DNA from: Bacteroidales bacterium
Lineage (GTDB): Bacteria > Bacteroidota > Bacteroidia > Bacteroidales > F082
Direction of reading: 5' to 3'
Length of the DNA: 64,000 nt
Assembly (NCBI GenBank): GCA_045639025.1
Contig: JAZUCH010000005.1
Location: 2,806-66,805, forward strand
Position 1 is the first letter of the stretch; each line of letters opens with the position of its first letter. Below are positions 17,019-44,764 of the stretch, in pieces. The notes below the pieces were generated by a model that was not told the origin of the DNA, searched no databases, and was given only the letters and a program-made list of their open reading frames with translations. A program made the position numbers and the translations under genes.

Positions 17019-17037
17019 AAGACTATTATTTTAAAGG

Positions 17038-18330: not shown

Positions 18331-18374
18331 ACGCTATATTTTAATCTGTTAATAATCATTCTATCCGTCAGCAA

Positions 18375-19829: not shown

Positions 19830-22800
19830 TTATTCCACCTCATCTTTTAATTGCTCAAACTGATATATTTCATCATTTGTATAGATAACGAATCCCAGTC
19901 CGTCATTTGTAAAACAGTAGATCGGCACAGTGTAGCGCACTCCAGGACGAAGGATGCCTTCTGGTTCTCCTTCCATTCCGATTGGAATGTCTAACTCTGT
20001 TCTGTGTACGTTTATCTCACCTCTTTCGAGACCGATCCACGCACCAGCAAGACTGCATAGTCTAATCTTAGGATTTACAATATCTGTGTTACCTATATTA
20101 CCATATTCAAGAGTCAAGATACAATATCTGTTAAGTCTCAATCCATCTGGGATGATAAGATTTGTTGAGAGGTTTTCTGGCAGACCAGGCACCACAACGA
20201 AACTATTCATCAGATATGTATATCCAGCACAATAGTTATATGCTTCTATGCTATAGACGCCCTCTTCCGCACCTGTCATATCGAAGGTGACGCATACCTC
20301 ATTGAAGTTGATGTAATAGAGTTCTTCTGCTTCGATTATGTTATACATAGTGCTATCTGCAGGATTACCCATGAAGAGTCTGACCGGCATATCGTAACGG
20401 AACTTAGAACCTATGAGTTTCACAGTGACCTTACCTGTGTTACCAGCGGTGTTAGATTCTACAGAACGTATTTCAAATGGCAAGATGTTAGCTTCTATAG
20501 TAACCATCTGCTCATCATCGAGAGGGTCGTTACCCATAACGCTGATACCGTAGTAACCAGCTCTTGTCGTTGGGATATATACTTCAGAATTGCCTTCCAT
20601 ATCGCCGTCAGTTGAGAAGTCGTAATCCATATTGCTACCAATACTGTTATGTTTTACGTAGATGTTATTCACAGCACCTATTTCAGCATCCAGTGATGAA
20701 ACATGGATACGAACCGTCTCGTTGATATTTCCGTTGATATTAAGTTTGAAGTCTTTATGTACGAGGTCTTTCAACTTGAATGTAATCGGTGTATCGAAGA
20801 AGAGTTCTGGGACCTGTACCTCGAAAGGATAAGCAGAATATCCTCTATTGTTATTTTCATCCACTTCATAGAATGAGTTACGAGCATCACCATAAATGAT
20901 GATGTAATACTCGCCTTCTGGTATACCCGAGATATCTGCAGTGAAAGTATATTCTTCGTAAGAATAGTTAGGCAATACCAAATCATGATCTATGTTTCCT
21001 AACAAGATGTCGTCTGGACTGAATGTCTGGTCTGTTGAGAGATAAATAACATCGTTACAACCCTTACCTTCCAATTTGTTTGGTCCTAAGTTCTTGAGGT
21101 GATATTTTATTTCCATATCATCACCTGAAGTAACCATGTATGGATGAGAAATAGCTTCAACAATAATATCTCCTGGAGGATTATGATCTACATTAACTGT
21201 ATGCATTCCGAGGTTGTTTTCGTAATTCACCTCAAATAACATTCTTTCTCCGTTTGAAGCATTGACATCAATATAGAGAGCAAAGTTTCCTGTATTCGGC
21301 AATGGAATTATTAATTCTATAGTATCATTATAAGACTGACCAGGATCCAAATTGAGATTGTCGTTGTAATTAATTCCTCCCAAGATTCCATTATCATAAG
21401 TATTTCTTGACCAAAAGATCTTGTCTATCCATGATGCAGCAACTTTGTCGCCAATATTTGTAACAGTATAGGCAACACGTATCGGTTGACCCGCCGCAGG
21501 ATATTCCGTTACAATATCAACATTGCTAATCTCGAGGTCTGGAACTGGGACACTATAAACATTCTCACCCATACAAGCAATATTGTTACTTGGATTGGTA
21601 TCAGGATTATTATTTCCATCATCAGCAACCATTATGATATAAACATCAGGACCTATACCATAAGGAATAGTAACATCTATTACACCTATTTGCGATTCTC
21701 CAGCTTTCAATCTGTTAGCACGAAACGTTCTGATTTTAATATCACCACCGTCCAATACATTATCCTCAGACAGATAAATAGTATTAAAATAAGATTTAAC
21801 AGTAGGCTTGGTTCCATTATTTCTAACCTCATATTCATATGAAACAACATCTCCCCAGTATATATCACCTATTAATCTAGCCAAGTATCTAACTTCCAAA
21901 TCACAATCGTATAAACCAACATCTAATAGAGGACTCTGATATATATTATTATTTTCGCCAATATGCTCATATACAACATCTTCAGCATCCACTACTATGT
22001 AAAGGTATTGTGCCGTAGTTATATCTGCAGGAAGAACAAACTCAAAGTATCCTTTACAACCATTACCATAATGACTAAAATCAATTATGTCACCATATGT
22101 CATTGAATTTGAGCATAAATATTTAGCATTATTTATATTGAATTGTGGTTCAGATGAAATATAGAGTCTATTAGTCACAATTGTTTCACGTAAATTATAA
22201 AATTCCACGCCTTGGGTTTCTCCTATAGTGTAAGGCAATACAATAGTATCCCCTGCCATCGCACTTTCAGGCATATCAACATGCAATATTTCCAGATCAG
22301 AATAAGGGCGCAACGACACTTCGAAACTCTCAGATACTATGTAATTAGTATATGTATTATCACCTTCACAAACATTTTCATCATCATTGACTGAGACATA
22401 GAGGTAATATATACCCTCAGCCGATTGTGGCATTGTAACATATTCTGTTATAGTGACAGTCTCTCCTATTGCAAGAGACATAGGTTCATACTTGCTCAAC
22501 AACTCTTCTGCTGTGATGAAGTTAAGTTCAGGAGATAGACCAAGATAATATCTGATATTGACTGTATCATTAAAATCTACATAACCTCTATTTGTGATAG
22601 TATATGTAATTTCATTTCTTGAAATGAGCACAAGTTCATCTGCGAAAAAGTCTGGGTTGAAGAGCTGCAAGTCTATAGTCTGATTATTATTTGTAAATGT
22701 TTTTTCATTGCCAACATAACGGCTTTCAACCTTGAGAGTATTATCTGTATAGAAGTTACATTCAAGATGTATAGGCAACTTCATTATCAACGAATCATTA

Positions 22801-25800
22801 GGATTAAGATTGATTGACTCTATTCTATTATTAAATATCTGTGCATTGTTATAGTTGACAGTATTAGACATTTGACCGTCGATAATCTGACCTTGACCTA
22901 TATTCTTAACAATATATCTGACAGTATCTCTGTTCTCATCAAGTGTCAAACCATATACATAGAGATCTGGCAAGACCACTCTTACAGTATCACTTATCGC
23001 ATTATTATCTTCTTTATTGTATTCGAAGATGTTATCGCCTTGGTCAGTAAGAATATGTATGTAATACAATCCATCTTCATATTCTTCTGGAATAAGCACT
23101 TCTTTTTCTACGGTATAACTATTCTTGTATAGTTCAAGTTTCTCATGACGAAGAGCCTCGCGTTTCAAGTCCTGTATTTCTTTTTCCTGCAAATACTGGT
23201 TCCACTCATCCGAATCAACAGTAATAGTGTCAGAAGGTATGATTTCAGGGAACTTACAATTTACAAACACGTCAATAGTGTCAATTATAGCTTCTAATTC
23301 ACCAAGAGTCCATAATATCTTGTTATTATTGTACGTCATCAATTCTTCCGCAGAGTTATCAAACTCTGATTCTTTAGAAATATAAATCTCATCTCTCCAT
23401 GGTTTTCCGTAAATTGGAGGCAACATTGCACAAGTATCTTCCGACCATTTTGAGTTTTCGTTAGTATTCTTGTAACCTATATTCTTGACTGTATATGAAA
23501 TCTTGAATTTCTCATTTGGTGACAAGGTATCTGATGATATTACGATATTTTCTATTGTCAAGTCAGCAGGCGGCACTAGCATAAATACTGTAGGATGTTC
23601 TGAACAGAATGATATATTATTATGCTCGAATAATGATTCATAAACTTGGTCACGTACGTCAGTCTCTACGAAGAAGTAGAATGTGTCGATATCCTTCTCA
23701 TTGGTGATGAATTTTGCTGTACGAGTAAGTGTATCGTTACGTTCAATGCTGATAGTATCACGGAAAGCACCTAACATTATCGCATCATCATCGAAAACAT
23801 CTTTTGTTGACATATAGATATTGTCAGTTACAGGAATATTTTCGAAGGCAGCGCCACCTTGGTTGATGAGTTGCCATGAGATAGTGATGCTATCACCGGC
23901 GAAATGTTCGTAAGGAACGATAACATTCGTTGCTATGAGGTCAGGGATTGGAGGGATATCTACTTCAATAGCTTTATAGAAGAAGTTATCCACGCCGTTG
24001 ATTTCCTCGAAAGAAGCATTACCGGCTTTCTTATTATAACCAGACATAAAACCGTATGGTTTTCCTTCTCCATAGAGGTTTGGAGTATATGGATTAGGGA
24101 ACACACCACCATATTGTGCAAAGTTCAGACCTAATCCAGCGTTAGGGTTCCAGTTAGACAAGACGAACAAGAACACTGCGCCATACATATCGTCAGGTAC
24201 TGTGATAGTCGCTGTATTTGTATAGCTCTCTCCTACTTGCAAAGCAGTGAGGTTTTCCACTCTGTCAATGATAAATGACTCGTATGGAACCTGTGTGAAG
24301 CTTTCTGTTGTCCAGTCGATAGGATAAGAAAGAACTATGTAATCATACCATGTCTCGCCAACAGGTGTAGGACCGTGACCGTCGTTACGTACTGTCCATT
24401 CCACTGTCATAGGCTGACCTGTCTGTGCGTAAGAGCAGTCCATCGCTGTGATATGCAAGTCAGGCAATGCTGTGTTGAAATACATAGTGTCTGTTTCTAT
24501 AGCAGCACATTCTCTGTAAGCCACCACCTTCCATGCGTAATAAGCGATATCTTCTTCTAAAGTCTGCTCTAGATATCCTGGCAGTTGTTCTTCAATAGGT
24601 ATATAAGGAAGGAGTCTAGGATATCTGCCATAACCTTGATATACTGACGCTTTAAGGTCAATAGTATGATAGTTATTGGTGATGTTGTATGCTACAGGGA
24701 AGTCTGGTTCCGCAAGTCCATGACCATCATCGACACGCCATAACCATAACTCGTATGACTCAGCACCTTCTATGTGATCCCAAGAGAACAAGACTTTGCT
24801 GTTAGCTTGAAGAGCCTGGTCATTTTCTGGCAATAAGTTGTCTGTCTCGAAATAGTTTACCCAAACTACAGAATCTGGATTACATTCTGTAGTGAAGTAA
24901 ACAGGATTAGAATAAGGGCTCATTTCAATCTCGTTGCATATAGCGCGTACCTTGACGAAATATTCAAGGTTTGGAGAGAGACTATCGATAGTGATATATG
25001 TTGTATCGACTGTCATCAATGTTGGTGAGTTCTCTCCTGCTCTATCAAAATATACTAACCATTCTGCTTCTGTTCCGTTTGAAGTCCATGTAACATCAGC
25101 TGTTGTGAATGTCAGCTTATCTTCAGGAACGCTGAGGTCAGATATCATCTTACATGAAGTAGGATTATGTTCGCAAGCGCCCATATCAATATTAGCTCCT
25201 CTGACACGTTCATTGCCATCATAGTCAAAATCAAGGTAATGTGTCAGATCCTTATTACCTTTATCGATACAGTCTGATGTTTCACTGAGGTTGTACCAAC
25301 CATCTTCCAGACGCTCAAACGAAACATAATTAAGGGCAACATTACTACCACTATTTTCTGTCTCCAATATAATATTTGTTGCAGGATCAGGCACAAACTC
25401 GTCACGTTCACAAGCTGAATACTGGAAGTCCGGACCATAATGAGAATGTCTAATGTTACTTATATAATTACCTGCTCTATTTCCCCACACTATTGAATTA
25501 TATATAGGAAATTCACCTGATGCATAAATACCACCTGCATAAGCTCCTTGAGCATCGCCATCTGCAACATTATTCACGACAGTACTATTTACAATTTTAC
25601 CGTATGTAAAGACGCCTCCACCCTCTTTTGCCGAGTTTTGAATTATCACAGAATTGTATATTTTACATTGGACACCATATATACCACCGCCTCTAATATC
25701 CGCTTTGTTCAGTCCGATATAGCAATATGAGATAGTATCATTGATACCATTCGCCACCAAAATGGCGCCACCACTTGCCGTTGTAGTGTTATCTCTAAAA

Positions 25801-28800
25801 GCACAATCATGTACAGAAACATTATTTACAATATACAGAGCTCCACCGCCATTTGTACTCAAAGGACTGGAGAGATTGGTATTATATAAAAAACCTGAAT
25901 TATATACTTCTACATTACTGAGTCGAGCTGCAGCTCCCTTATTTACAGAGCGTCCATTCATGAATCTTATACCATCTATTCTATTACGAGTGCCAGATTT
26001 ATTATCCTTAAGATCTCTGATCAAGATTTGTTGCTTATTTTGTCCGTCAAAGACTGTCTTGTTTGTATCGAAGTCACGTAATGATAGGTCGAAGTTTGCC
26101 GCTTCATTACCAACGAAACCACCATATAAGCTGACATTATCTGGCATGATGAATGCTGGATTTGATGCCACGCCATTACCTTTATAAGTACCCTTTGCAA
26201 TCCAGAACTTGATAGGTCTTTCATATTGATATATTCTATCCATAGCGAACTGCAGATATGGAGTTGCATTAGCCCATGAAGAACCATCTTTAGTACCGGC
26301 ACCTTTTTCTGTCACATAGACAATATCGTTAGCATCAGGTATAATCTCATGGTTAATTTCGAAGTTACTTTCATAAGCACCCATATCGATGGAATCGTTT
26401 ATAATACGAGGATTGCCATCAAGGTCTACGTCTGTTACAAGTGAAATTGTAGAACCACGGTTAACACAGACAGAACCATCTTGCAATCTCCAGTCGCCTG
26501 CTCCATAGTTACCTACGCCAACTGCGGTTGTAGGATTTACGAACATCGGATAGTTGATATCATCGCTGCCTGAATTAGCGGCGTTAAGAATGATGTTGCC
26601 TTTACCGACACAACCACCTTCAACAGCAGAATAATTCACTTGTGTGTTATAGTAAGAAACATCAACATCATCCAAATTCAAGTTTGATGTGATGTTACCT
26701 TCTATCTTATTTCCCCAAATAATAGAATTCTCAACAAGTTCATAATTAGAGATACCACCTACTCCATCATAAGCATAGTTATTAACAATAGTAGAATTAT
26801 AATGCTTAGTCTTTGGAGATTTTGAATCTTGAGCACTTGTACCAGCGCCAGCATACGCATCAACGCCGCCATATCTATCATCTTTTACCGCACCATTGTT
26901 ATTGATGAGACAGTTTCTAAATGTAATAGGTCCATAATAACCACCACCAATAGCATTTGTCACTTTATTGTTTCTTATTACAGAATTTATAACAGAAACT
27001 TCTTTTGTATCAGCATATATACCTGCTGCTCCGCATTGTTCACCAAGACTATTCCAGAGACCTTCGATAGCTGCACCGTTCTCTATTATTGAGTTTCTCA
27101 ATTCACCCTTACGCATCAAAACGTTACCACCATAATTACAATATACGAAACCGTTTCTTATTGTGAGACCGTCATAGATGGCATAGTGCATTGGGTCGAG
27201 AGAATATTTGAAGTGAGTGCTATGAGCCTGATGCAATGTTCTTTGGATATTCTGACCGTCGAGGATTGTTGCGTTGTTGACAAGGTCACGTTGTGTAAGG
27301 TCATAGTCGTGAGCCTCGTTACCAACGAAACCGCCATAGATGTCAATACCATTAAGACCGATGAATGCATCTACGTATGGCCAGCCGTTACCGGTGTAAG
27401 TACCTTTGGCAATCCACACTTTTGGATGATTGTCATCATCAGCTGCAAAGTTAAGAGCGAGCTGCAAGTCGTTGATAGCGTTGTCCCAAGAAGAACCTGT
27501 CATATCGCTGCCTGTATTATTTGCATTGACGTAGATGATGTTATTTCCGTCAGGATAGATACGGAAACTGTTTGTTCCATTTGTCTCGTAAGCACCTATA
27601 TCTATTCTGTCTTGTTTTACACGTTTCTCATCATCGAGGTCTTGTTCAATCATATATTCGAGGCGTTCACCCATATTGATACAGATTGAACCTTCCTTGA
27701 TTCTCCAGTCGCCGCCCCAGTAGTTGGCACCCACTTTTTCAGTAGGATTTACGAAGCGTGGTGAGAACATATCGTTGCCGTTTTCAGCAGTGAGGTTGAT
27801 AGTACCGATACCGGCAGCACCTCCTTGGATAGCGCAGTATCTCACATAGATAGGAACATTAGAAGCAGACACCGCAACCTGTTGTGTATTGAGGTCTGTC
27901 TTGTTACCCCACATTATACAATTTATGAACTCGTTGTTGCTTCCTGAGTTTGCGCTATATACACCGCCACCGAGATAATATGAGAAGTTGTTTACCATAG
28001 TACAGTTGAGCAACTGTGATGGCAATGATGAATTACCTATATACATACCTCCACCGTATGATGACTCGGTGAGCACGCTGTTGTTAGCGATGAGACAGTT
28101 GTTGATAGTTGCGTTTTCTCCGTAGATACCACCACCATGTTTTGCTGAACCGGTGAGGTTGTCGATGAGGTTGTTGTTGATTTCGCAATATGTCAAAACT
28201 GAAGATTTACAGAATGCACCGCCACCTTGTGAAAGAGCAGTATTGCCATAAATCTTACAATCAGTTATTTCGCATTTATTGTCAGCATAGATACCTGCAC
28301 CAGCACTACCTTGGTTATTCTTGATGATACAGTTTCTAACCTTAACAAAGTTCTTGACATAAATACCGCCACCTTCTTTTGTTGTATAACCTTCTTGAAT
28401 TGTGAAACCGTCAATTACCGCATTTTCATTAACATTAAAATCCTCATATGCGTTATAGTTACCCAAGACTCTCTGACTTTGTGCACCGCTGAGAATTGTC
28501 TCATTTGTCACGAGGTCTCTGTCTTCGAACTCTATTCCATTCAACTCATTACCAGCGAAACCACCATAGATTTCAACACCTGGTTTTATCTGGAACGCCT
28601 GAGCACTGGATCCGTTACCCATATAAGTACCCTTAGCGACCCATACTTGTTTCTTGGATTCTGACTGGAATGAAGATGCCTTATTGATAGCTTCTTGTAT
28701 ATCCGACATAGCGTCATTCCATGAAGAACCGTCTTTCTTACCAGCACCTGTTTCAGTGACGAACCATATCATTCTTACTTCAAGGTCTAAAGTAACGAGA

Positions 28801-31800
28801 CTATCACATGCAGATCCTTCTGGAGTCCATTGTTTGCTGTAGTGTCCCGACTCTGTCAATATATCGCCATAGAACACATATTCCTCATTTGCAATGACCT
28901 TCATGTGTCTGTAACCGATACATCCGCCTTCGTAAGCACCCATATCTACATTATCATTATAGATACGGTCTTTTCCTGCCAAGTCGAACTCTCCTACAGA
29001 ATATGCATTGTTACCTTTATCGGTGACAGCAGAATTGCTTTGAAGCTGATATGCTCTTCCTTCAGGATCGATAAAGTTGACATAGTTGACACCTTCTTCT
29101 GTTCCTGTGTTATATTTATCGAGGTTAATATTACCTGTTCCTGTGTAACCGCCATGGATACCGCAGTATTCGTATGTATTGTCATAACCCTCTATCTGGT
29201 TAGAATAGTTACGGCTAACATTATTCCACAAGATACAGTTATAATACTTGTTATTATGATTTGTAGATGACAAGGTATCGAAGGCATACATTTCAGTGTT
29301 GTTACCAACGATAGTACTATTCAGAACCTTAGTCCAGTTGATATTCAAACCAGCAAAACGATCTGACTTGTTGTTACTGATTTCACAGTTGACAATACTA
29401 TCACATTGTGTTGCAATACCATCATACTTTCTTGACATTACAATGGCACCACCTTCTGTATGAGCATAATTATCATGGAACTTGGAATATGAAATAACAA
29501 CATTCATTTTACTACTGTTATTATCAGCATATATAGCACCACCTTTAACAGCCACGTTATTATACAACTCACAATTTGTGACTGTCACATTATCTTTCAG
29601 TCTTATAGCACCACCCATATATTCATCAGGGAACGATGTTATTGATATAGGAATACGTTCAAGGTATATAGGTTCAGCATTACCATTCTTGAATGTAAAG
29701 CCATCTATGATTGATTTCTCATAATCATATGTACTTGAATAATGATCAATAGCACGATAATAATCCTTAGCATCCAAAACTGTTTTGTTTTCAAACATAT
29801 CTCTGTCGTTCTTATTGAATGTTGCTGAATTTTCATCACCTGCAAAACCGCCATAGATTTTTGTTCCAGGCACTATTGTGAACATCGCCCAACCTTCATT
29901 AGCAGACATTGTATAAACACCTTTCTTCATCCAGATTTCAGGACGTGGGTCCATTGTAGCTGCATAGTTGATAGCTGTCTGAACATCAGCAGTGGCGTTA
30001 TTCCAAGAAGAACCGTCCTTGCTGCCTTTAGCGGTCACATCTACATAAATGACATTATTTGCATCTGGAACAATGATGTCTTCTCTTGAATAATCTGATT
30101 CCTGTGCTCCAATATCAACTCTACCTTGTCTTACACGGCTCTTGCCTTTGAGGTCGTATTCTGTAAGATCATATAGTGCATCTGTACCTGCATTGATACA
30201 TACAGAGTTAGGAGTAAGAGCAGTACCGTCAAGTGACAATGTATAATCTTTATTTATGGTTATATTACCTTCTCCTGGATAACCTCCTTCAACTGCACAA
30301 TAACGTAAATTTGAAAGTCCCACCCACTCTCTGGTTATTTTCATTTCATCATCAAAGAAGTAATAATAGTTGGAAAGGTTATTTGAATTACCATTAACTT
30401 TATTACCATAAATGATAGTATTTACTATTTCGTCAAACTTACCATAGAAAGCGCCACCAGATACTTTAGCACTGTTGTTTATGACAGTACAATTATAGAG
30501 ACTAATGCTACCGCCTATCTTACGGAAAGCACCGCCATTACCGTCTTCTTCACCATCAATAGTTCTTGTAACTTTATTATTTGAGATAACAGTATTATAA
30601 TAGCGTCCGTCTCCCCATCCGCCTACAATTTTAGGGTCTTCTTGATATACAGCACCTGCATTGTTGCTGATTATGGTATTATATACATCTTGGAAACTTA
30701 CAGCAATCCTCTCGTAACCATATTCATCCTTAAACGACTCTGCAGCCCACATAATCTTAATAGCACGACGCTTATTATTGGAGATACTACATCCATCTAA
30801 CATTGTATAAGTCTGTACTTCTACACCAAGTCCATCATTGTTATCAATATTACAATTGAAGAATGATGTATTTTCTGAGTGTATTACAGGAGTACCTTGG
30901 TTATGATGGATGTTACAATTTTCAAATGTATTGATTGATTTGCGTGCATTACAGTTATCAAAATCAGCAGCATCAATCCAAATAGGTCCTGGACCGTATT
31001 CTGAATTAGTACAGTTATCCGTAATGATACAATTTCTTATATAGAAATGCTTTTTCATAAATAAAGCAGTTCCTTTTGATACACTCTGACGTGAAAAACC
31101 TTTAGTGATGGTGAAACCATCAATGATTACAGGTGTTTCTTCTGTTGCGTCTTCTTCCATGCAGATGACACGTTGTATGTAACCGCCGTCGAGAATTGTC
31201 TCGTTAGCTGTAATATCACGTTGTGTGATGTCGTAGTCGGCAAACTCAGTTCCTGTGAAACCACCATAGAGACGTACGTTTGGTTTCAAGATGAAAGCAT
31301 TGACTGATGTACCATCGCCTCTATATCTTCCCTTAGCAACCCATATTTCTGTTAAGTTACCATTATCTTTTATTGAATCGCATGCCGTCTTAAGTTCGGT
31401 ATAAGCGTTTTCCCATGAAGTACCATTATTAAGACCCTTAGCTTCTGCATTGACATAAACGATGTGTTTGAAAGTGAGATGCATAACAATGATACTATCG
31501 CAATCATGCTTTGCTTCTTTACGATGGATATATATTCCAGGTTCGGTAAGCCATTCTCCATAGAAAGGATATTCATCCATCATAGTAACGACTTTATATT
31601 CACGTTTCAAGACACAGCTGCTTTCTATAGCACCTATATCAACAGTACCGTCACCGACACGTTCTTTTCCATACGCATCAATTTCTTCTGTCACTACAGA
31701 GTTGTCACCAGCGTCAATCAAAACTGAATTTTCACCAAGTTCATAGTTGTTGCCTTCTGGTGAAATGAAATTAGGATATTCATAAGTCTGACTTGTACCG

Positions 31801-34800
31801 CTGTTGCTTGGAGCAAGAGCAATAACTTCATCAATGCCATCCAAACCTAACTCAACAGCACAGTTGTTAAATGAATACTTTTCAAGATTATTTCTATCAA
31901 AGTCTGATGACACACCGATGTCATTAGTGTTATTCCAAACAACTGTATTATGGAACACACCTCCACTAATCATCTTATTTGTTGAAACATCCGCTGTTGT
32001 CTTATTACTTACAATATCACAGTTGATAAATTTATCATCATTAGTAAACTTATGGTTTACAACGGTAAAGCCTTCATTATCCGCGATTATAGTATTAATA
32101 TAGGTGTTTGCATATTGGACTCCGTTTACATTTGTCTTGAGAAGTGTAGCGCCTTTATTGCCTATAATCTCAGTATTCTTGACTGTAGTTGCAAAAATTT
32201 CAAAGATTGTAACTGAATTGTTTTCCATGTCAGGCATATCTTCAAATGTGCGGTTACCTTCTATATGACATTTATCCAACGTGCTGCCGTAAGTTTGTAT
32301 CTTACCTATATTATTCTTGAATGTTGAGTTTATAATATTGGAATTCACAGCATAGAGATAAGAACTCCTGGTATTATTTTTATCGCTTGTGACTGTGACT
32401 GCATTACTAATATTGATATTATCTGCAGTGGCACCTACTAATGCGAGATTGCTAGCCATCATCCAATTAGAATAAGCACCATCTAATGAAGCATCTGTAT
32501 CAATTCTGTTATTTTCAAATGTTATGTTCTTCAATGTTGTGTTTCCGAGGACTACAGCACCAGCACCAACAAGATGGTAGATTCCCATTCCACCATTAAG
32601 ATTACTTGCCTTACAATAAACCGAGTTATAACTATGGAAATCTTTTTGGTTAAGATAACCGTTTCTAATTACGAAACCGTCCCATGTCGTTGTCTCTCCA
32701 TCAGCGAAAGGCTCATCTTGGAATAAGACACGCTGTGTATTCTGTCCGTCAAGGATTGACTTGTTGTTTTCTAAATCTCTATCCTCAACACTTGTTTCTG
32801 TTCCTGCGAAACCGCCATATACATTGACATTCTCAACGATATTAAATGCATTGTTGCCAACTACACCATCACCATAATATGTTCCTGCTTCAACCCATAC
32901 TTCTGCTATAGGATCAAAGGTATTTGCCTGAGCGATAGCATATTGTAAATAAGGTGTCGCATTGCTCCATGAAGAACCGTCTTTCAATCCTGAACCTTCT
33001 GTACTTACATAGATGACTCCATCTGTTGGATTAAGACTCATTACAGAAGCTGCATCTGATGACATCGCTCCTATCGCCTTGCCGTCATCGGCATGACCGA
33101 AGAGTATTGAATTTGCCTTAAGACTCCAGTCGTATGTCTCTTGATTGAAGATGGTACCGAGGTCGGTGATAGGATTGACAAAACGAGGTGAGAAGATATC
33201 GCTATCATTAGCTTCTGTGATACGGATGTTGCCGATACCATTGTATAAAGCACCGTCAATGGCACAATAATCTACATTAGACAAATTATCTTTTGCTATG
33301 AAGTTATTGTCGAATGATGAGATTGCGTTGTTCCATAATACGCTGTTCTTAATATCTGAAGATTTTAATGCAATGATAACATTATTATATTGATAATAAT
33401 AATCCTCTGCATTGTCAAATTGTGATACTTCCCCTCCTGTAGAGAATGTCACCATATTATTCATCAAGTTTGAATTGCTGATGACACTATTGTCCTTAGC
33501 ATAGACTATAGCGAAGAAACCAGAAGTTCCGCCACTGATAGCATTATTGAATATCAATGAGTTTGTAATATTAGTTTCAATAGCTTCAATCATAGAATAC
33601 TTAGATGTATTCTTATAGATATGTGTCTTTTCAATATTACTTGCTGTTGCCTTGATGAGGTTACGGTTGGTGGTGTTGCCATAGACAAAACATGAGTCTA
33701 ATACAGCATTGTCAAGTTCTATAAGAGGAGAATAACCGCTAGTATTATTATCAACGAACTTACATCCTTTCACTGTTGAAGAAGCTTTTACCTTGAAGTT
33801 TTGGCCGCTTTGCAAATTGGTGATTGTACAGTTTTGCAATAAACCGCCATTGACTTCTGTCTTAACTGTAATCTCAGAATTTCTCAAGATGCAGTGATTA
33901 TTGATGACAGCATTATAACCATTGATGCAGAATCCGTCCCAGATAGCAGGATTTTCCGCTGTGGCTGGATTGTCTGTTGATTTGTCTAATACGTTGTAAC
34001 TTTTTGCTCCGTCGAGAATTGTCTTGTTGTTTTCTACATCGCGTTCTGAGAACAATGTCTCTGTTCCTGCGAAGCCGCCATATACTTCAACGCCTGAAAC
34101 CATTGGGAAGCGAGTGCTGCTATTATAACCTGAATAAGTTCCTGCAGCTACCCAGACTTGTCTGCTATCTACGCCGCTCTGAGCGAATGCAGCCATAACA
34201 GCGTCGTTGATATTATCCATAGCATTGTCCCATGAAGAACCGTCTTTGCTGCCGGCACCTGTTACTGTGACATATATCACAGAACTGCTTACTCTCACGT
34301 CCATAACGACCAAGCTATCGCATGAAGCATCTATAGCCCAACGTTTCTGATATTGTCCTGGTTCTGTGATGACAGAACCATAGAAGTTGATACTGCCGCC
34401 TTGTGCTAAAGTCTTGGAGATATGTCTGTATTTTACGCAATATCGTTCAAAAGCACCCATATCGATGGTTGTTCCGTTGATACGTTGCTTGCCGTTGAGG
34501 TCATACTCTGTGACATTGGCATTTTCATTATTACCGGCATCAACAGCGACTGAGTTGTCTTGAAGTTCGAAGATATTGTTTGCACCATCGAGGAAACGGA
34601 TGTAGTTAGCACCTCGAACATTGCCATCATTATCTAATTCAATGTTGATGTTGCCCTCTCCTTCCCAACCGCCTTGGATTGCAGAATAAGTGACATTGAC
34701 GCTGTTTCCTGTTCCAATTTGTGAGTATTCTCCGTTGTGAGTATTGCCCCAGATAATACTGTTGACCACTGTTGTACTATTCAAATATGCAGCAGGATAG

Positions 34801-37800
34801 ATTGCATTGTAATTATATTCTACACTGTTCTTTACGATGGTAGAGTTGACGATAACACCTGATGATGCTTCTACACCTGAATATAATCTCGCTTTGTTAT
34901 TGTTTACGAGACAGTTGACCATTGTAGATGCACCAAGATAGAGACCGCCGCCTTCACCTTTAGTTTCATTATTATAAATCTTGGTGTTTGTAATCTTTGC
35001 ATACGATATATAAGCACCGCCAGCATATGCAGAAGCGTAATTCTTATTATCTCTGATGACACTATTGTCTATCAATGAGTGGTTGTTCGCATCCACCATA
35101 ATACCTGCGGCATAACCATTTTCACTGACATTATCATAAATAATGAAGTTTCTCAAAGTGACATAATCCTGGATATATGCACCTGCCGCTTTGTAACTTT
35201 CCTCATCATAACCATTTCTTACAGTGAAACCATCCCATAATGCAGCTGTTGTTTCTGTGAAGTCTGACTCTTGATGTAAGACGCGTTTTGTATTATCACC
35301 ATCTAATATAGTTGCATTTGTGATAAAGTCTCTTTGTGAGAGGTCATAGTCGTGAGACTCATCGCCTGCGAAACCGCCATATACCTCAACTGCTGGTGCC
35401 AGTCTGAACGCATAGACTGAATTTGCATCGCTTTTATATGTTCCACCTTTAACCCAGACCTTTGATCCATAGATATTAGCAAGGTCGAGAGCTAACTGCA
35501 AGTCATCGGTTGCGTTAGTCCATGAAGAGCCGTCTTTGCTGCCAGCACCTGTTGTTGTTACATAAATAATATTATTATCTGAAGGAACTATATTAAGTGC
35601 AGGAACATGACTTGATTCGTATGCACCCAAATCCACTGCACCTTGTTGAACACGTTCGTTACCTATAATATCAGTTGCAGGCAAACTTACAATTGTCTTA
35701 GAACCTTTATTGATACAGATGGAGTTTTCTGTGAGTGTATAATCTCCGTTTTCAGGATCTGTGAAGCAAGGATAGAATCCATTGTCACCTGTGTTTTCTG
35801 AATTGAGATTTATGACACCTATTCCGTTATAACCTCCTTCAACAGCAGTATTTCTAATATCAAAATTATTATTATTATTATTGACATTTATTTCATCACT
35901 AGTGTTACCCCATAAAATACTGTTATAGATTCTTACCTCAGAACCACTTACATAGATACCAGCACTTGAAAAACTTGAACTGTTTATATTATTGACAACT
36001 GTATTATTAATAAATAAGGTGTTATCCGAAAGATATACCGCATAACCATTACTGCCACTTGATTTGTTATCTGTTATCAAACAGTTTATCACACTGACAT
36101 AACCAATAGCATAGATAGCAGAAGTGTATGTGGTAGATGTGTTGTTTCTAATGATACAGTTACGAAGTATTGTAAAATCACGGAGACTGACACCTGCGCC
36201 ACGATCTGTTGTGTAACCGTTTTGTATCACAAAACCATCTATTACAGAAGTCGTGTTTTGTGTAAAGTCATTTGCCTGATACAAGACACGTTTCTTGTTC
36301 TTACCATCGAGTATTGTCTGGTTAGCAGAGAGGTCTCTTTGTTCTAATGCTGTCTCTGTTCCTGCGAAACCGCCATATATCTCAACGCCTTCTGCTATAA
36401 TGATATAATGGTCGCCATCTTCTTCATTGCCGTATGTTCCTGCTTCAACCCAAACCTGAGGTTTATTATTATTTGCAGCAGCAACATTAATCGCCATCTG
36501 CAAATTGGAAACAGCGTTTTCCCATGAAGAACCGTCAGCTTCACCTCTTTCTTCCGTGGCAACATAAATGACATTGTTTGCTCCAGGAGTTATAGAAGAA
36601 CCTTTAAATGCAGATTCGTAAGCGCCTATATCTATCTTTCCGTTTTGGATACGGGCATTGCCTGCAAGGTCTTTCTCTGGAAGTGTAACCCCCAAGCCTT
36701 CTGTATTACCTTTATTGATGGCAGCAGATCCTTCCTGCAATGTCCAGTTGCCGCCTGAATATCCAGAGCCAGCACCTTCTGAAGGAGCGGTAAATTTAGG
36801 ATAACTAACTTCTGTAGAAGTTCCAGTGTTATCCGCAGATAATGTGATATTACCTGTACCATAACCGCCTTCAATGGCACTATAAGTTACATAAGTCAAT
36901 GTTGTAGGATGAATCTGATTTGATAAAGTTCCTTTCTTGTTACCCCATATTATACTATTGATGATAGTAGGATTACCTTGTCCATATATACCAGCACCAT
37001 TATAAATACTTGATGTACCTGTAAGATAATTGTTTACAATATTACAATTGACAATCTTACTATTTGAATTACTATATACACCACCTCCATTGTTAGATGA
37101 CGTATTATTGGCGATATTACATCCTATCATATCAACATAGGATTGCATAAATACACCTCCACCATTGTACCCTGAAGTATTATTTTCTATCCTACAATTT
37201 ACAACTATTGATAATTTTTTAGTATTAGTATATCCACTGACATAAATACCACCACCATTACCTTTACTGCTATTACGATAAATATTACAATCCTCTATTT
37301 TAGAAATATTATTTGTATTTGGTTTCACAATATACACACCACCACCTTGGGAATATGTTGAAGAACTACCATTAGTTTCATTATCATATATTTCGCAACC
37401 ACTAATGTAACCATCTTTCATATAAACACCAGCGCCAAATACATCACCACTACCAGTATTCTTAAGATGGTTCTCATAGACCTTACAGTTTTCTAATGTT
37501 CCGCCATTTACATAAATACCACCACCATACACATCTGTACTAGTTGCTAATGTTATACTGCCATTTCCTGTTATCTTACAGTTTCTCAATGTTCCGTAGG
37601 CATTGATGTATGCGCCTGCACCATTGAGCATTCCTCCTCCGTTCTTAATTGTGAAGCCGTCCCATACCGTTGCTGTCGCCTCGGTATATGCCTTCTCCTG
37701 ATACAAGACTCGCTGTGTGCCTTGTCCGTCCAATATTGTCACATTGGTCTCATAGTCTCTCTGTTCCAATGATGTCTCTGTTCCTGCAAAACCGCCATAA

Positions 37801-38096
37801 ACGTCAACGCCTTCTACCATAGTAAAAACATTGGCAGAAGTGCCGTCGCCTGTATATGTTCCTGCCGCAACCCAAATCTCAGGATAAGAGGCATGCTCTG
37901 CTATGATAGATGCCGCCATATTAAGGGCTACATTCAAATCGGTTACTGCATCATTCCATGATGTACCTTCATTAGAACCAGCCGCATCAGCATCGACATA
38001 AATCGTTGAGAGATTAGGCACACTCTGCGCCTTAAGATTTATAGTCGCTAATAAAATTAAACTTGTTGCTAACAGTAAAAGTCTTTTCATAAGCAT
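19830..38096 (-). CDS. 6088-aa secreted giant protein: ten tandem choice-of-anchor-Q-like right-handed beta-helix modules, then FN3-like and multiple CARDB-like domains; no recognisable T9SS CTD
   Basis: A single uninterrupted 18.27-kb ORF with signal peptide MLMKRLLLLATSLILLATINLKAQ. Ten module starts have the form (I/V)YV....G..DGSSW.NA...LQ.A......(I/V)WVA.GTY....(V/I)YGGF.G.E....RD...N.TILDG. Each module ends D(L/I).G..R...G..D(I/M)GA(Y/F)E. FN3 lies around 24890-25160 (DLSVPEDKLTFTTADVTWTSNG..YFVKVRAICNE). CARDB-like units run from about 24465 to the stop (PDLHITAMDCSYAQTGQPMTVEWTVRNDGHGPT, PDLIATNVIVPYEHFAGDSITISWQLINQGG ...). Confidence 0.85.
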   Translation of the reverse strand: MLMKRLLLLATSLILLATINLKAQSVPNLSTIYVDADAAGSNEGTSWNDAVTDLNVALNMAASIIAEHASYPEIWVAAGTYTGDGTSANVFTMVEGVDVYGGFAGTETSLEQRDYETNVTILDGQGTQRVLYQEKAYTEATATVWDGFTIKNGGGMLNGAGAYINAYGTLRNCKITGNGSITLATSTDVYGGGIYVNGGTLENCKVYENHLKNTGSGDVFGAGVYMKDGYISGCEIYDNETNGSSSTYSQGGGVYIVKPNTNNISKIEDCNIYRNSSKGNGGGIYVSGYTNTKKLSIVVNCRIENNTSGYNGGGVFMQSYVDMIGCNIANNTSSNNGGGVYSNSNSKIVNCNIVNNYLTGTSSIYNGAGIYGQGNPTIINSIIWGNKKGTLSNQIHPTTLTYVTYSAIEGGYGTGNITLSADNTGTSTEVSYPKFTAPSEGAGSGYSGGNWTLQEGSAAINKGNTEGLGVTLPEKDLAGNARIQNGKIDIGAYESAFKGSSITPGANNVIYVATEERGEADGSSWENAVSNLQMAINVAAANNNKPQVWVEAGTYGNEEDGDHYIIIAEGVEIYGGFAGTETALEQRDLSANQTILDGKNKKRVLYQANDFTQNTTSVIDGFVIQNGYTTDRGAGVSLRDFTILRNCIIRNNTSTTYTSAIYAIGYVSVINCLITDNKSSGSNGYAVYLSDNTLFINNTVVNNINSSSFSSAGIYVSGSEVRIYNSILWGNTSDEINVNNNNNNFDIRNTAVEGGYNGIGVINLNSENTGDNGFYPCFTDPENGDYTLTENSICINKGSKTIVSLPATDIIGNERVQQGAVDLGAYESSHVPALNIVPSDNNIIYVTTTGAGSKDGSSWTNATDDLQLALDLANIYGSKVWVKGGTYKSDANSVYAFRLAPAVEVYGGFAGDESHDYDLSQRDFITNATILDGDNTKRVLHQESDFTETTAALWDGFTVRNGYDEESYKAAGAYIQDYVTLRNFIIYDNVSENGYAAGIMVDANNHSLIDNSVIRDNKNYASAYAGGAYISYAKITNTKIYNNETKGEGGGLYLGASTMVNCLVNNNKARLYSGVEASSGVIVNSTIVKNSVEYNYNAIYPAAYLNSTTVVNSIIWGNTHNGEYSQIGTGNSVNVTYSAIQGGWEGEGNINIELDNDGNVRGANYIRFLDGANNIFELQDNSVAVDAGNNENANVTEYDLNGKQRINGTTIDMGAFERYCVKYRHISKTLAQGGSINFYGSVITEPGQYQKRWAIDASCDSLVVMDVRVSSSVIYVTVTGAGSKDGSSWDNAMDNINDAVMAAFAQSGVDSRQVWVAAGTYSGYNSSTRFPMVSGVEVYGGFAGTETLFSERDVENNKTILDGAKSYNVLDKSTDNPATAENPAIWDGFCINGYNAVINNHCILRNSEITVKTEVNGGLLQNCTITNLQSGQNFKVKASSTVKGCKFVDNNTSGYSPLIELDNAVLDSCFVYGNTTNRNLIKATASNIEKTHIYKNTSKYSMIEAIETNITNSLIFNNAISGGTSGFFAIVYAKDNSVISNSNLMNNMVTFSTGGEVSQFDNAEDYYYQYNNVIIALKSSDIKNSVLWNNAISSFDNNFIAKDNLSNVDYCAIDGALYNGIGNIRITEANDSDIFSPRFVNPITDLGTIFNQETYDWSLKANSILFGHADDGKAIGAMSSDAASVMSLNPTDGVIYVSTEGSGLKDGSSWSNATPYLQYAIAQANTFDPIAEVWVEAGTYYGDGVVGNNAFNIVENVNVYGGFAGTETSVEDRDLENNKSILDGQNTQRVLFQDEPFADGETTTWDGFVIRNGYLNQKDFHSYNSVYCKASNLNGGMGIYHLVGAGAVVLGNTTLKNITFENNRIDTDASLDGAYSNWMMASNLALVGATADNINISNAVTVTSDKNNTRSSYLYAVNSNIINSTFKNNIGKIQTYGSTLDKCHIEGNRTFEDMPDMENNSVTIFEIFATTVKNTEIIGNKGATLLKTNVNGVQYANTYINTIIADNEGFTVVNHKFTNDDKFINCDIVSNKTTADVSTNKMISGGVFHNTVVWNNTNDIGVSSDFDRNNLEKYSFNNCAVELGLDGIDEVIALAPSNSGTSQTYEYPNFISPEGNNYELGENSVLIDAGDNSVVTEEIDAYGKERVGDGTVDIGAIESSCVLKREYKVVTMMDEYPFYGEWLTEPGIYIHRKEAKHDCDSIIVMHLTFKHIVYVNAEAKGLNNGTSWENAYTELKTACDSIKDNGNLTEIWVAKGRYRGDGTSVNAFILKPNVRLYGGFTGTEFADYDITQRDITANETILDGGYIQRVICMEEDATEETPVIIDGFTITKGFSRQSVSKGTALFMKKHFYIRNCIITDNCTNSEYGPGPIWIDAADFDNCNARKSINTFENCNIHHNQGTPVIHSENTSFFNCNIDNNDGLGVEVQTYTMLDGCSISNNKRRAIKIMWAAESFKDEYGYERIAVSFQDVYNTIISNNAGAVYQEDPKIVGGWGDGRYYNTVISNNKVTRTIDGEEDGNGGAFRKIGGSISLYNCTVINNSAKVSGGAFYGKFDEIVNTIIYGNKVNGNSNNLSNYYYFFDDEMKITREWVGLSNLRYCAVEGGYPGEGNITINKDYTLSLDGTALTPNSVCINAGTDALYDLTEYDLKGKSRVRQGRVDIGAQESDYSREDIIVPDANNVIYVDVTAKGSKDGSSWNNATADVQTAINYAATMDPRPEIWMKKGVYTMSANEGWAMFTIVPGTKIYGGFAGDENSATFNKNDRDMFENKTVLDAKDYYRAIDHYSSTYDYEKSIIDGFTFKNGNAEPIYLERIPISITSFPDEYMGGAIRLKDNVTVTNCELYNNVAVKGGAIYADNNSSKMNVVISYSKFHDNYAHTEGGAIVMSRKYDGIATQCDSIVNCEISNNKSDRFAGLNINWTKVLNSTIVGNNTEMYAFDTLSSTNHNNKYYNCILWNNVSRNYSNQIEGYDNTYEYCGIHGGYTGTGNINLDKYNTGTEEGVNYVNFIDPEGRAYQLQSNSAVTDKGNNAYSVGEFDLAGKDRIYNDNVDMGAYEGGCIGYRHMKVIANEEYVFYGDILTESGHYSKQWTPEGSACDSLVTLDLEVRMIWFVTETGAGKKDGSSWNDAMSDIQEAINKASSFQSESKKQVWVAKGTYMGNGSSAQAFQIKPGVEIYGGFAGNELNGIEFEDRDLVTNETILSGAQSQRVLGNYNAYEDFNVNENAVIDGFTIQEGYTTKEGGGIYVKNFVKVRNCIIKNNQGSAGAGIYADNKCEITDCKIYGNTALSQGGGAFCKSSVLTYCEINNNLIDNLTGSAKHGGGIYGENATINNCLIANNSVLTESSYGGGMYIGNSSLPSQLLNCTMVNNFSYYLGGGVYSANSGSNNEFINCIMWGNKTDLNTQQVAVSASNVPIYVRYCAIQGGAAGIGTINLTAENGNDMFSPRFVNPTEKVGANYWGGDWRIKEGSICINMGERLEYMIEQDLDDEKRVKQDRIDIGAYETNGTNSFRIYPDGNNIIYVNANNTGSDMTGSSWDNAINDLQLALNFAADDDNHPKVWIAKGTYTGNGWPYVDAFIGLNGIDIYGGFVGNEAHDYDLTQRDLVNNATILDGQNIQRTLHQAHSTHFKYSLDPMHYAIYDGLTIRNGFVYCNYGGNVLMRKGELRNSIIENGAAIEGLWNSLGEQCGAAGIYADTKEVSVINSVIRNNKVTNAIGGGYYGPITFRNCLINNNGAVKDDRYGGVDAYAGAGTSAQDSKSPKTKHYNSTIVNNYAYDGVGGISNYELVENSIIWGNKIEGNITSNLNLDDVDVSYYNTQVNYSAVEGGCVGKGNIILNAANSGSDDINYPMFVNPTTAVGVGNYGAGDWRLQDGSVCVNRGSTISLVTDVDLDGNPRIINDSIDMGAYESNFEINHEIIPDANDIVYVTEKGAGTKDGSSWANATPYLQFAMDRIYQYERPIKFWIAKGTYKGNGVASNPAFIMPDNVSLYGGFVGNEAANFDLSLRDFDTNKTVFDGQNKQQILIRDLKDNKSGTRNRIDGIRFMNGRSVNKGAAARLSNVEVYNSGFLYNTNLSSPLSTNGGGALYIVNNVSVHDCAFRDNTTTASGGAILVANGINDTISYCYIGLNKADIRGGGIYGVQCKIYNSVIIQNSAKEGGGVFTYGKIVNSTVVNNVADGDAQGAYAGGIYASGEFPIYNSIVWGNRAGNYISNIRHSHYGPDFQYSACERDEFVPDPATNIILETENSGSNVALNYVSFERLEDGWYNLSETSDCIDKGNKDLTHYLDFDYDGNERVRGANIDMGACEHNPTSCKMISDLSVPEDKLTFTTADVTWTSNGTEAEWLVYFDRAGENSPTLMTVDTTYITIDSLSPNLEYFVKVRAICNEIEMSPYSNPVYFTTECNPDSVVWVNYFETDNLLPENDQALQANSKVLFSWDHIEGAESYELWLWRVDDGHGLAEPDFPVAYNITNNYHTIDLKASVYQGYGRYPRLLPYIPIEEQLPGYLEQTLEEDIAYYAWKVVAYRECAAIETDTMYFNTALPDLHITAMDCSYAQTGQPMTVEWTVRNDGHGPTPVGETWYDYIVLSYPIDWTTESFTQVPYESFIIDRVENLTALQVGESYTNTATITVPDDMYGAVFLFVLSNWNPNAGLGLNFAQYGGVFPNPYTPNLYGEGKPYGFMSGYNKKAGNASFEEINGVDNFFYKAIEVDIPPIPDLIATNVIVPYEHFAGDSITISWQLINQGGAAFENIPVTDNIYMSTKDVFDDDAIMLGAFRDTISIERNDTLTRTAKFITNEKDIDTFYFFVETDVRDQVYESLFEHNNISFCSEHPTVFMLVPPADLTIENIVISSDTLSPNEKFKISYTVKNIGYKNTNENSKWSEDTCAMLPPIYGKPWRDEIYISKESEFDNSAEELMTYNNNKILWTLGELEAIIDTIDVFVNCKFPEIIPSDTITVDSDEWNQYLQEKEIQDLKREALRHEKLELYKNSYTVEKEVLIPEEYEDGLYYIHILTDQGDNIFEYNKEDNNAISDTVRVVLPDLYVYGLTLDENRDTVRYIVKNIGQGQIIDGQMSNTVNYNNAQIFNNRIESINLNPNDSLIMKLPIHLECNFYTDNTLKVESRYVGNEKTFTNNNQTIDLQLFNPDFFADELVLISRNEITYTITNRGYVDFNDTVNIRYYLGLSPELNFITAEELLSKYEPMSLAIGETVTITEYVTMPQSAEGIYYLYVSVNDDENVCEGDNTYTNYIVSESFEVSLRPYSDLEILHVDMPESAMAGDTIVLPYTIGETQGVEFYNLRETIVTNRLYISSEPQFNINNAKYLCSNSMTYGDIIDFSHYGNGCKGYFEFVLPADITTAQYLYIVVDAEDVVYEHIGENNNIYQSPLLDVGLYDCDLEVRYLARLIGDIYWGDVVSYEYEVRNNGTKPTVKSYFNTIYLSEDNVLDGGDIKIRTFRANRLKAGESQIGVIDVTIPYGIGPDVYIIMVADDGNNNPDTNPSNNIACMGENVYSVPVPDLEISNVDIVTEYPAAGQPIRVAYTVTNIGDKVAASWIDKIFWSRNTYDNGILGGINYNDNLNLDPGQSYNDTIELIIPLPNTGNFALYIDVNASNGERMLFEVNYENNLGMHTVNVDHNPPGDIIVEAISHPYMVTSGDDMEIKYHLKNLGPNKLEGKGCNDVIYLSTDQTFSPDDILLGNIDHDLVLPNYSYEEYTFTADISGIPEGEYYIIIYGDARNSFYEVDENNNRGYSAYPFEVQVPELFFDTPITFKLKDLVHKDFKLNINGNINETVRIHVSSLDAEIGAVNNIYVKHNSIGSNMDYDFSTDGDMEGNSEVYIPTTRAGYYGISVMGNDPLDDEQMVTIEANILPFEIRSVESNTAGNTGKVTVKLIGSKFRYDMPVRLFMGNPADSTMYNIIEAEELYYINFNEVCVTFDMTGAEEGVYSIEAYNYCAGYTYLMNSFVVVPGLPENLSTNLIIPDGLRLNRYCILTLEYGNIGNTDIVNPKIRLCSLAGAWIGLERGEINVHRTELDIPIGMEGEPEGILRPGVRYTVPIYCFTNDGLGFVIYTNDEIYQFEQLKDEVE

Positions 38097-40358: not shown

Positions 40359-40365
40359 CCCCCCC
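40358..40365 (-). promoter_or_regulatory. G8 homopolymer (C8 on the plus strand) at the 5' end of the first gene of the giant operon; candidate slipped-strand phase switch or homopolymer sequencing error
   Basis: The plus strand reads ttcaCCCCCCCCgtc. ATG 40437 opens a 31-codon ORF, MRNICCLAKPLVVIIIFLLSVNQDGGGESSV*, that passes through the tract. A G7 or G10 tract would fuse it in frame to the 729-aa ORF. Confidence 0.7.
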
Positions 40366-40462
40366 GTCTTGATTTACAGAAAGTAAGAATATAATAATGA
40401 CAACCAAAGGTTTAGCTAAACAACAAATATTTCTCATAAAAACCTATTTTTAATTCAACATA

Positions 40463-42967: not shown

Positions 42968-42985
42968 ATAAGATATATTATTTCG

Positions 42986-42993
42986 CAAATATA
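42986..42993 (-). promoter_or_regulatory. -7 promoter box (TATATTTG) for the kinase / response regulator genes
   Basis: The plus strand reads caaatata, 19 bp upstream of ATG 42967. Confidence 0.5.
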
Positions 42994-44333: not shown

Positions 44334-44352
44334 ACACATCTAATAAAAAAAG

Positions 44353-44393
44353 AAATCTCAGGGATTCTAAATAGAGTTCCTGAGATTTTTTTT
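44353..44393 (+). terminator. Rho-independent terminator of the BNR/T9SS gene
   Basis: Stem aaatctcagg ... cctgagattt followed by a T run. Confidence 0.75.
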
Positions 44394-44394
44394 G

Positions 44395-44481
44395 CGGAGA
44401 AAGAGGGATTCGAACCCTCGGATCGCTGATGCGATCAACGGTTTTCGAGACCGCCCCATTCGACCACTCTGGCATTTCTCC
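44395..44481 (-). tRNA. tRNA-Ser (anticodon CGA)
   Basis: The reverse complement is GGAGAAATGCCAGAGTGGTCGAATGGGGCGGTCTCGAAAACCGTTGATCGCATCAGCGATCCGAGGGTTCGAATCCCTCTTTCTCCG, with anticodon loop CT-CGA-AA and a long variable arm. Confidence 0.92.
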
Positions 44482-44754: not shown

Positions 44755-44764
44755 CACTCGTAAA

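Follow-up and report, generated by a model that had tools for sequence, protein, structure and literature searches.

A stretch of 64,000 nucleotides from a Bacteroidales bacterium (contig JAZUCH010000005.1; the whole stretch is called the window below) carries an open reading frame (ORF) of 18.27 kb, and this locus raises the question of whether so long a gene is real and, if so, what kind of protein it encodes and how that protein would be held by the cell. The initial annotation, made from the sequence alone, had described a giant protein with ten tandem beta-helix modules followed by a CARDB tail. This observation was borne out overall: the ORF is intact and encodes a signal peptide, ten diverged beta-helix modules and a tail of FN3 and CARDB domains. 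The family of the modules was already curated; what is new here is a conserved tail cassette, an accessory operon and the lack of a known sorting signal, all of which had been overlooked in that first reading. The features of the giant gene, in window coordinates, are as follows.

19830-38096, reverse strand: giant ORF, 6088 aa, with an ATG start and zero internal stops; ratio of nonsynonymous to synonymous substitution rates (dN/dS) about 0.1; orthologs of 6092-7282 aa.
38028-38096, reverse strand: Sec signal peptide, aa 1-23 (MLMKRLLLLATSLILLATINLKA, followed by QS), read from the sequence, with a putative cleavage site.
36606-38015, reverse strand: beta-helix module 1, aa 28-497 (motifs, domain match).
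35607-36581, reverse strand: beta-helix module 2, aa 506-830, the shortest (motifs, domain match).
34437-35579, reverse strand: beta-helix module 3, aa 840-1220 (motifs, domain match).
34278-34442, reverse strand: small two-Cys spacer domain 1, aa 1219-1273 (same domain at least five times in the 2537-aa neighbour).
33027-34289, reverse strand: beta-helix module 4, aa 1270-1690, lacking the closing DIGAYE motif (motifs).
31614-33026, reverse strand: beta-helix module 5, aa 1691-2161 (motifs).
31458-31619, reverse strand: small two-Cys spacer domain 2, aa 2160-2213 (sequence comparison).
30090-31472, reverse strand: beta-helix module 6, aa 2209-2669 (motifs).
28920-30062, reverse strand: beta-helix module 7, aa 2679-3059 (motifs, ortholog comparison).
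28764-28925, reverse strand: small two-Cys spacer domain 3, aa 3058-3111 (sequence comparison).
27576-28781, reverse strand: beta-helix module 8, aa 3106-3507, the best Pfam Beta_helix stretch (Pfam, motifs, ortholog comparison).
26361-27548, reverse strand: beta-helix module 9, aa 3517-3912 (motifs, ortholog comparison).
25161-26333, reverse strand: beta-helix module 10, aa 3922-4312 (motifs, domain match, ortholog comparison).
24882-25160, reverse strand: FN3 domain, aa 4313-4405 (Pfam fn3 PF00041, 27.7 bits against a cut-off of 25, scanned alone).
24477-24881, reverse strand: segment of 135 residues, aa 4406-4540, with zero Pfam match.
20835-24476, reverse strand: stalk of nine CARDB-like units, aa 4541-5754, unit 3 with an insert (Pfam, internal profile).
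19833-20834, reverse strand: conserved C-terminal region, aa 5755-6088 (334 aa), modelled as three immunoglobulin (Ig)-like beta-sandwich domains (model, alignment, dN/dS).

For a gene of this length it has to be considered that the ORF is an assembly artefact, made of a collapsed or chimeric repeat or of several genes wrongly joined, and the closest relatives of the window are indeed short-read assemblies of metagenome-assembled genomes (MAGs). Against this, the repeats show 60-75% identity in stretches of 118 nt or less, and zero arrays were reported by Tandem Repeats Finder, in line with the claim that the modules are diverged at the DNA level. The single ORF, 6088 codons from its ATG and stop-free inside, was also uninterrupted in other assemblies. 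In the genome scan the closest relative was the Bacteroidales MAG contig JAZQYR010000006.1: 21 kb of it align colinearly with the window (94% identical at the DNA level), and its ortholog was gene-called at 6092 aa; two more distant orthologs from other samples, on a MEGAHIT-style k141 contig and a SPAdes-style NODE contig, reach 7282 and 6760 aa, respectively. The dN/dS of the giant ORF against three relatives was 0.10-0.12 (3640-3660 codons compared); it stayed at about 0.1 along the ORF and, when three parts of the protein were compared, was lowest in the C-terminal region (0.05-0.06). Each module was closest to the module at the same position in the orthologs (40-98% identity, compared with 30-37% for paralogs), and the module order was conserved in full-length relatives of 6363 and 6746 aa. 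Taken together, the similarity of same-position modules, the kept order and the dN/dS values show that the array is old, maintained and under purifying selection, as had been proposed, and the artefact explanation was set aside as extremely improbable. The giant gene is real, intact and conserved.

We then looked at the identity of the ten units, whose boundaries were set at recurring motifs. The N-terminal motif (I/V)(Y/W)(V/F)..G..(D)G(S/T)SW occurs ten times (aa 32, 510, 844, 1274, 1695, 2213, 2683, 3110, 3521 and 3926), and the motifs (I/V/L)YGGFxG and RD..N.(T/S)(I/V)(L/F) were likewise found ten times each in a motif search. The closing motif (I/V)D(I/L/M)GA.E, said to end every unit, is present in nine of them and absent from unit 4; similarly, the count of ten was right, whereas the unit length given as about 430 aa in fact ranges from 325 to 471 aa, with a mean of about 410. 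Pairwise identity among the modules is 26-45%. The assignment to choice-of-anchor Q, right-handed beta-helix domains held: NCBIfam NF041518 (choice-of-anchor Q) gave 235 bits over nine stretches of aa 1-4333 (cut-off 25 bits), and Pfam Beta_helix (PF13229) gave 53.2 bits in four stretches (cut-off 25.9 bits). The tenth module, scanned within an overlapping tail piece, scored 24.5 bits with NF041518, just below the cut-off. All ten thus match this family, of which the N-cap and C-cap motifs are the signature. After modules 3, 5 and 7 lies a domain of about 50 residues with the pattern C..Y....(F/Y)G..(I/L)TE.G.Y.......CDS.V...L.V, which had no family match in the scans run. This two-Cys domain is common to the giant (three copies) and to a 2537-aa protein encoded further down the same operon (at least five copies).

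The fold class raises the possibility that the ten modules are enzymes, namely polysaccharide lyases or glycanases, and that the giant is a cell-tethered multi-catalytic array degrading plant cell walls. A pectate-lyase-like fold is supported by the Beta_helix match, the habitat is the herbivore gut, and the identity of each module is kept across species, which is compatible with module-specific functions. In contrast, neither the Pfam nor the NCBIfam scans of the giant matched any pectate-lyase, other lyase or glycoside-hydrolase family, and a search with the module profile found zero relatives among PDB sequences. Charged residues invariant across the ten modules are confined to the first 124 and the last ~40 residues (reference module of 402 aa); between these ends the rungs conserve only Asn, Gly and Ile, and modules are distinguished by insertions and deletions of whole rungs. 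The modules therefore share with the pectate lyase superfamily (PL1/PL9-type beta-helices) the predicted fold class, but at the sequence level their rungs have no conserved catalytic or Ca-binding residues. In addition, the tail that carries them bears clearly non-enzymatic heads in other proteins (cohesin, LRR and PKD; see below). Because the invariant charged residues lie only at the module ends, the rungs vary by whole-rung indels, no lyase family is matched and the same chassis carries binding heads, we prefer the interpretation that the modules would bind rather than catalyse, and we regard an enzymatic array as improbable, though single modules may still have a catalytic site of their own.

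The initial annotation had held proteins of this size to be very unusual in host-associated Bacteroidales and had implied that the ten-module array was unique; neither view could be kept. The genome scan, for which a 7-sequence alignment of the C-terminal region served as query, returned 36 loci, labelled Bacteroidales or Candidatus Limimorpha and nearly all from MAGs of the rumen, abomasum, colon or faeces of hosts such as ruminants, deer and horses. Of these rumen and hindgut loci, 31 were examined: in 27 the tail-bearing ORF extended past the 5' limit of the DNA retrieved, and 24 of the 27 showed more than 3640 aa without a stop, usually including 2-4 visible modules. We also searched 1.84 billion cluster representatives (50% identity) with a profile built from the ten modules, and 117,138 proteins matched. 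The best 150 of them measure 1480-7792 aa, mostly 2000-7800 aa, and contain 3-23 matched stretches; by motif count, 25 of these 150 have at least seven modules and the maximum is ten, reached by two proteins, one of which is the 6363-aa representative of the giant's own orthologs. Database proteins of 4000-7800 aa with 5-10 such modules are many. A CARDB tail was present in 24 of the best 150 matches, and the others end in T9SS-like, dockerin-like or other tails. The giant resembles other choice-of-anchor Q proteins in this respect, one type of head being combined with many C-terminal anchors; it differs from them in having ten modules per chain and, as an anchor, an FN3-CARDB stalk with a three-Ig region and no curated sorting signal. 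Ten modules are the upper end of a well-populated range, and the giant by itself is one more member of a large, sequenced but unstudied family. In the literature on choice-of-anchor Q proteins, on CARDB domains with T9SS and on giant beta-helix adhesins of Bacteroidota, we found no account of the family, of the tail cassette or of the operon.

The tail proved to be the more informative part. The switch from beta-helix to tail had been placed correctly, at nt 25160 (aa 4313). Of the two FN3-like domains announced there, the first was confirmed by Pfam, whereas aa 4400-4545, taken for the second, gave zero Pfam match. CARDB units follow, as had been described, but their number is nine (aa 4541-5754) and not about ten: with Pfam CARDB (PF07705) the tail scored 117 bits (threshold 22.7), six of the nine units passed the threshold when scanned singly, and the remaining three were linked by the internal profile only. 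The last 334 residues had zero family match in Pfam or NCBIfam. A PPC-like domain had been proposed near the end; PPC (PF04151) was matched in 7 of 21 homologous C-terminal regions, with a best E of 1.2e-4, and was undetected in the giant at E<=1. An AlphaFold model of the C-terminal region, built with 21 homologs, is all-beta with a mean predicted local distance difference test score (pLDDT) of 90, and we read it as three Ig-like sandwiches. Foldseek returned generic Ig, FN3 and macroglobulin-type matches only, so that the first domain of the region is unconfirmed as PPC, and a profile search of PDB sequences with the region gave nothing useful.

When the 1776-aa tail was used as a query, about 60 proteins were found to share the CARDB units and the C-terminal region under different heads, with the precomputed Pfam labels Beta_helix, Cohesin, Flg_new_2, LRR_5, PKD, GEVED, Lysyl_oxidase and Cleaved_Adhesin. 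In most of these homologs the 320-residue C-terminal region ends 3-20 residues before the C-terminus, and in the giant it is the most constrained of the three parts compared by dN/dS. The FN3-CARDB-C-terminal tail is thus a conserved, portable cassette under variable heads.

Looking at the genes that follow the giant on the same strand, it appeared that the tail is accompanied by three partners.

18375-19820, reverse strand: operon partner 1, a 481-aa secreted protein with no family match, modelled with two PKD/Ig-like domains, then a helical linker and an all-beta C-terminal domain of long strands (model, family alignment).
17038-18330, reverse strand: operon partner 2, 430 aa, with a conserved N-terminal domain and thrombospondin type 3 (TSP3; Ca-binding) repeats (domain match).
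9405-17018, reverse strand: operon partner 3, 2537 aa, with DUF7619 (predicted isopeptide domain), two-Cys domains (domain match) and a C-terminal domain resembling those of type A in type IX secretion systems (T9SS; read by eye).

The gaps from the giant to the 481-aa, 430-aa and 2537-aa genes are 9, 44 and 19 bp, and a scan of these three gaps found zero terminator-like sites; a sigma-70 promoter scan was uninformative, promoter-like sites occurring at chance frequency. In related operons the genes overlap or lie tens of bases apart. To the 36 loci of the genome scan we added three from earlier look-ups (39 loci in all): the TSP3 gene comes after the tail gene in 33 loci, the majority of which contain the 481-like and DUF7619 genes as well. 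The trio follows tail-bearing genes irrespective of the head type (window 9405-19820; L001, L003-L037 and L040-L044), and one MAG holds two copies of the operon (L033 and L034). The 481-like proteins, of about 400-500 aa across loci, form a fast-evolving family (~16-36% identity across genomes) in which a signal peptide is always followed by a FAGEDK-like motif; the exact sequence of the window's own protein had no entry in the collection consulted. In the model of the 481-aa protein (pLDDT 73), the two PKD/Ig-like domains and a poorly predicted helical linker precede a 175-residue domain of ten long strands; a PDB sequence search with the family profile gave nothing useful. The thrombospondin-repeat proteins are a well-defined family, the best 120 homologs listed all having 427-489 aa. 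At their C-termini, the 2537-aa protein and the proteins related to it have type-A T9SS domains of the classical kind (PNP, GxY and last strands rich in K/R), and DUF7619 has been listed among the predicted intramolecular-isopeptide domains of surface adhesin stalks (PMC12617251).

A connection between the tail and the third partner came from gene fusions in other phyla. Three proteins (P0067, P0072 and P0086) contain, in a single chain, CARDB units, the full three-Ig region and then a homolog of aa 1386-1682 of the DUF7619 protein, which begins 300-800 residues after the three-Ig region. One of them, P0072, is encoded in a Planctomycetales MAG (L045 8001-17030), and in none of the three cases were the two small partner genes nearby. 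By Rosetta-stone reasoning, these fusions suggest that the C-terminal region of the giant and the DUF7619 core work together. Moreover, since the three-Ig region is internal in these proteins, it is a structural or interaction module and not an intrinsically terminal signal.

With moderate confidence, and from sequence-level evidence, we propose that the giant is a very long cell-surface protein of the fibrillar adhesin-like kind, exported by Sec and docked via its C-terminal cassette; our confidence in any particular export route is much lower. According to this proposal, the N-terminal two thirds, with ten right-handed parallel beta-helix modules and three spacers of disulfide type, would form a distal, ligand-contacting string; the FN3 domain and the nine CARDB Ig-like domains would make up the stalk, and the last 334 residues, with their three Ig-like domains, the conserved proximal end. 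This cassette would not act as a classical T9SS signal. Instead, the three-Ig end would most probably dock on the co-transcribed products. These are the 481-aa protein, the one with thrombospondin repeats and, as the chief candidate, the DUF7619 protein of 2537 aa, which, having a T9SS type-A sorting domain, would be the covalently surface-anchored partner.

Several results weigh against this proposal. The giant has no C-terminal domain (CTD) of the T9SS as described by NCBIfam (type A, TIGR04183; type B, TIGR04131; type C, NF033708), and it has no lipobox either, so that no recognised signal would account for the passage of a 6088-aa chain through the outer membrane. The putative docking onto the DUF7619 protein is deduced solely from gene neighbourhood and from the logic of the fusions. 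Finally, the 481-aa family showed no match to PorP_SprF (23 members, E<=0.1) or to any other family, its model is of moderate confidence, and the C-terminal beta domain of that model has no structural match, Foldseek finding Ig folds only.

A diverged T9SS CTD as the last domain was also considered and found no support: the CTD hidden Markov models matched 0 of 21 family C-termini even at E<=10, and hhalign, comparing the C-terminus of the giant with the operon's own type-A CTDs, gave a probability of 0.45%. These two results also count against the surface reading given above. The organism itself has a T9SS, since several proteins with a T9SS CTD are encoded in the window; a type-A CTD was recognised by NCBIfam in one of the neighbours, of 729 aa, and the type-A-like end of the 2537-aa neighbour was read by eye. 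The giant could therefore be imagined as a true T9SS cargo whose last Ig-like domain represents a new class of T9SS signal, with the 481-aa protein as the cognate shuttle or anchor and the thrombospondin-repeat protein as a cell-wall tether. The order of the genes (cargo, small secreted protein, Ca-repeat protein) resembles that of Flavobacterium johnsoniae operons, in which a type-B cargo is encoded with its cognate PorP/SprF shuttle and a PorE-like tether (PMC9143113, PMC12618676). The region occupies the very C-terminus, no other part of the protein is as constrained, and many homologs end, as judged by eye, in G-x-Y...hydrophobic...K/R, recalling CTD motifs D and E. Nevertheless, the CTD models and hhalign speak against such a signal as well, the thrombospondin-repeat protein has no OmpA-like domain, and the three-Ig region lies inside the chain in P0072, from Planctomycetales, as well as in P0067 and P0086. 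As for a PorP/SprF shuttle, the 481-aa protein was not retained as a candidate: besides the missing family match, its model (two Ig domains, helices and the 175-aa beta domain) is not a FadL-like barrel of ~300 aa and contains no large barrel. We consider a new T9SS signal class unlikely, and return to the docked, adhesin-like protein as the preferred interpretation.

This preferred interpretation invites a comparison with two known systems. Fibrillar adhesins consist of an adhesive head, a stalk of tandem Ig-like repeats and a C-terminal anchor (PMC12617251). The giant shares with them the layout of head, stalk and proximal end, heads that vary while the stalk is conserved, and a partner with the predicted isopeptide stalk domain DUF7619, and its tail has the predicted tandem Ig-like repeats that characterise the stalk of the class. 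It differs in that its head consists of ten beta-helices and not of one binding domain, that neither an LPXTG motif nor a T9SS CTD nor a lipobox is present, and that binding is predicted. With SprB and the other type-B T9SS adhesins of F. johnsoniae the giant shares a T9SS organism and a very large, repetitive Bacteroidota gene for a surface protein, directly after which lie small accessory genes that are conserved. Unlike these, the giant has no SprB repeats (PF13573) and no type-A, B or C CTD, and its partners fall outside the PorP/SprF and OmpA/PorE families. Its candidacy as a SprB-type gliding adhesin was accordingly dropped, the Pfam and NCBIfam scans having shown neither SprB repeats nor a type-B CTD.

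On the other side of the giant, two further loci lie upstream on the same strand.

38169-40358, reverse strand: upstream gene, encoding a T9SS type-A CTD protein of 729 aa (NCBIfam).
40528-42988, reverse strand: FimS-like TPR histidine kinase and LuxR-type response regulator, directly upstream (domain match).

Homologs of the 729-aa gene sit downstream of the DUF7619 gene in several relatives. In its mature form, the 729-aa protein has an N-terminal domain (...IEIGAFCGDEVRG...LRFYDHE...) that is found again towards the C-terminus of the 2537-aa protein (~aa 2270-2330), and this common domain explains the cross-hits of the two proteins in related loci. The listed start of the 729-aa ORF is a GTG inside a run of eight G; past this start the ORF encodes a hydrophobic segment bearing a basic cluster and, in addition, another signal-peptide-like stretch that has no ATG. 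At window positions 40340-40440 (reverse strand), an ATG-started, signal-peptide-like mini-ORF (MRNICCLAKPLVVIIIFLLSVNQDGGG) enters the same G8 run one base out of frame with the 729-aa ORF, and orthologs of the latter begin directly with MNIVKK...AQAQ. The G8 tract may serve for phase variation as a poly-G switch, or it may stem from a homopolymer error. The best model for the histidine kinase was Porphyromonas FimS, with 260 bits, below the cut-off of 600 bits. Adjoining the two-component genes, positions 43035-47983 hold three genes on the opposite (forward) strand: a BNR/sortilin-like protein with a near-threshold T9SS type-A CTD (22.5 bits for a cut-off of 23), a 531-aa protein with no family and a GWxTD-domain protein. 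At the other end, the window and its closest relative are syntenic exactly as far as the stop codon that ends the 2537-aa gene (window 9300-9405 compared with L044 20390-21419). In the window this gene is followed by a weak hairpin with a T-run and by a gene for a CatA-like O-acetyltransferase on the opposite strand (8687-9343), and in the closest relative the gene next after the 2537-aa ortholog encodes Flg_new_2 and Por_Secre_tail domains.

Bacteroidales of the rumen and hindgut are abundant and mostly uncultured and, to our knowledge, their attachment to plant particles, mucus and other cells is poorly known. These bacteria commonly devote 18-22 kb to a single gene for a presumed surface protein, and a whole family of such giants has the conserved tail and the accessory operon in common and is without any known sorting signal; it is the operon and the absence of that signal that most deserve follow-up. 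We put forward, as a possible though doubtful generalisation, that the FN3-CARDB-three-Ig tail and the 481-aa, thrombospondin-repeat and DUF7619/T9SS proteins constitute an undescribed display system of gut Bacteroidales, in which giants with no T9SS signal would reach the surface and be retained there by a split-off partner and dedicated accessory proteins, either via a T9SS signal of a new class together with a shuttle of its own, or by non-covalent docking on a T9SS-anchored partner, the heads being swappable. If this is true, beta-helix arrays, cohesins, LRRs and lysyl-oxidase-like domains would be exchangeable on one chassis, and the tail and its operon would provide Bacteroidota with an extra route of surface decoration and a chassis for natural head exchange.

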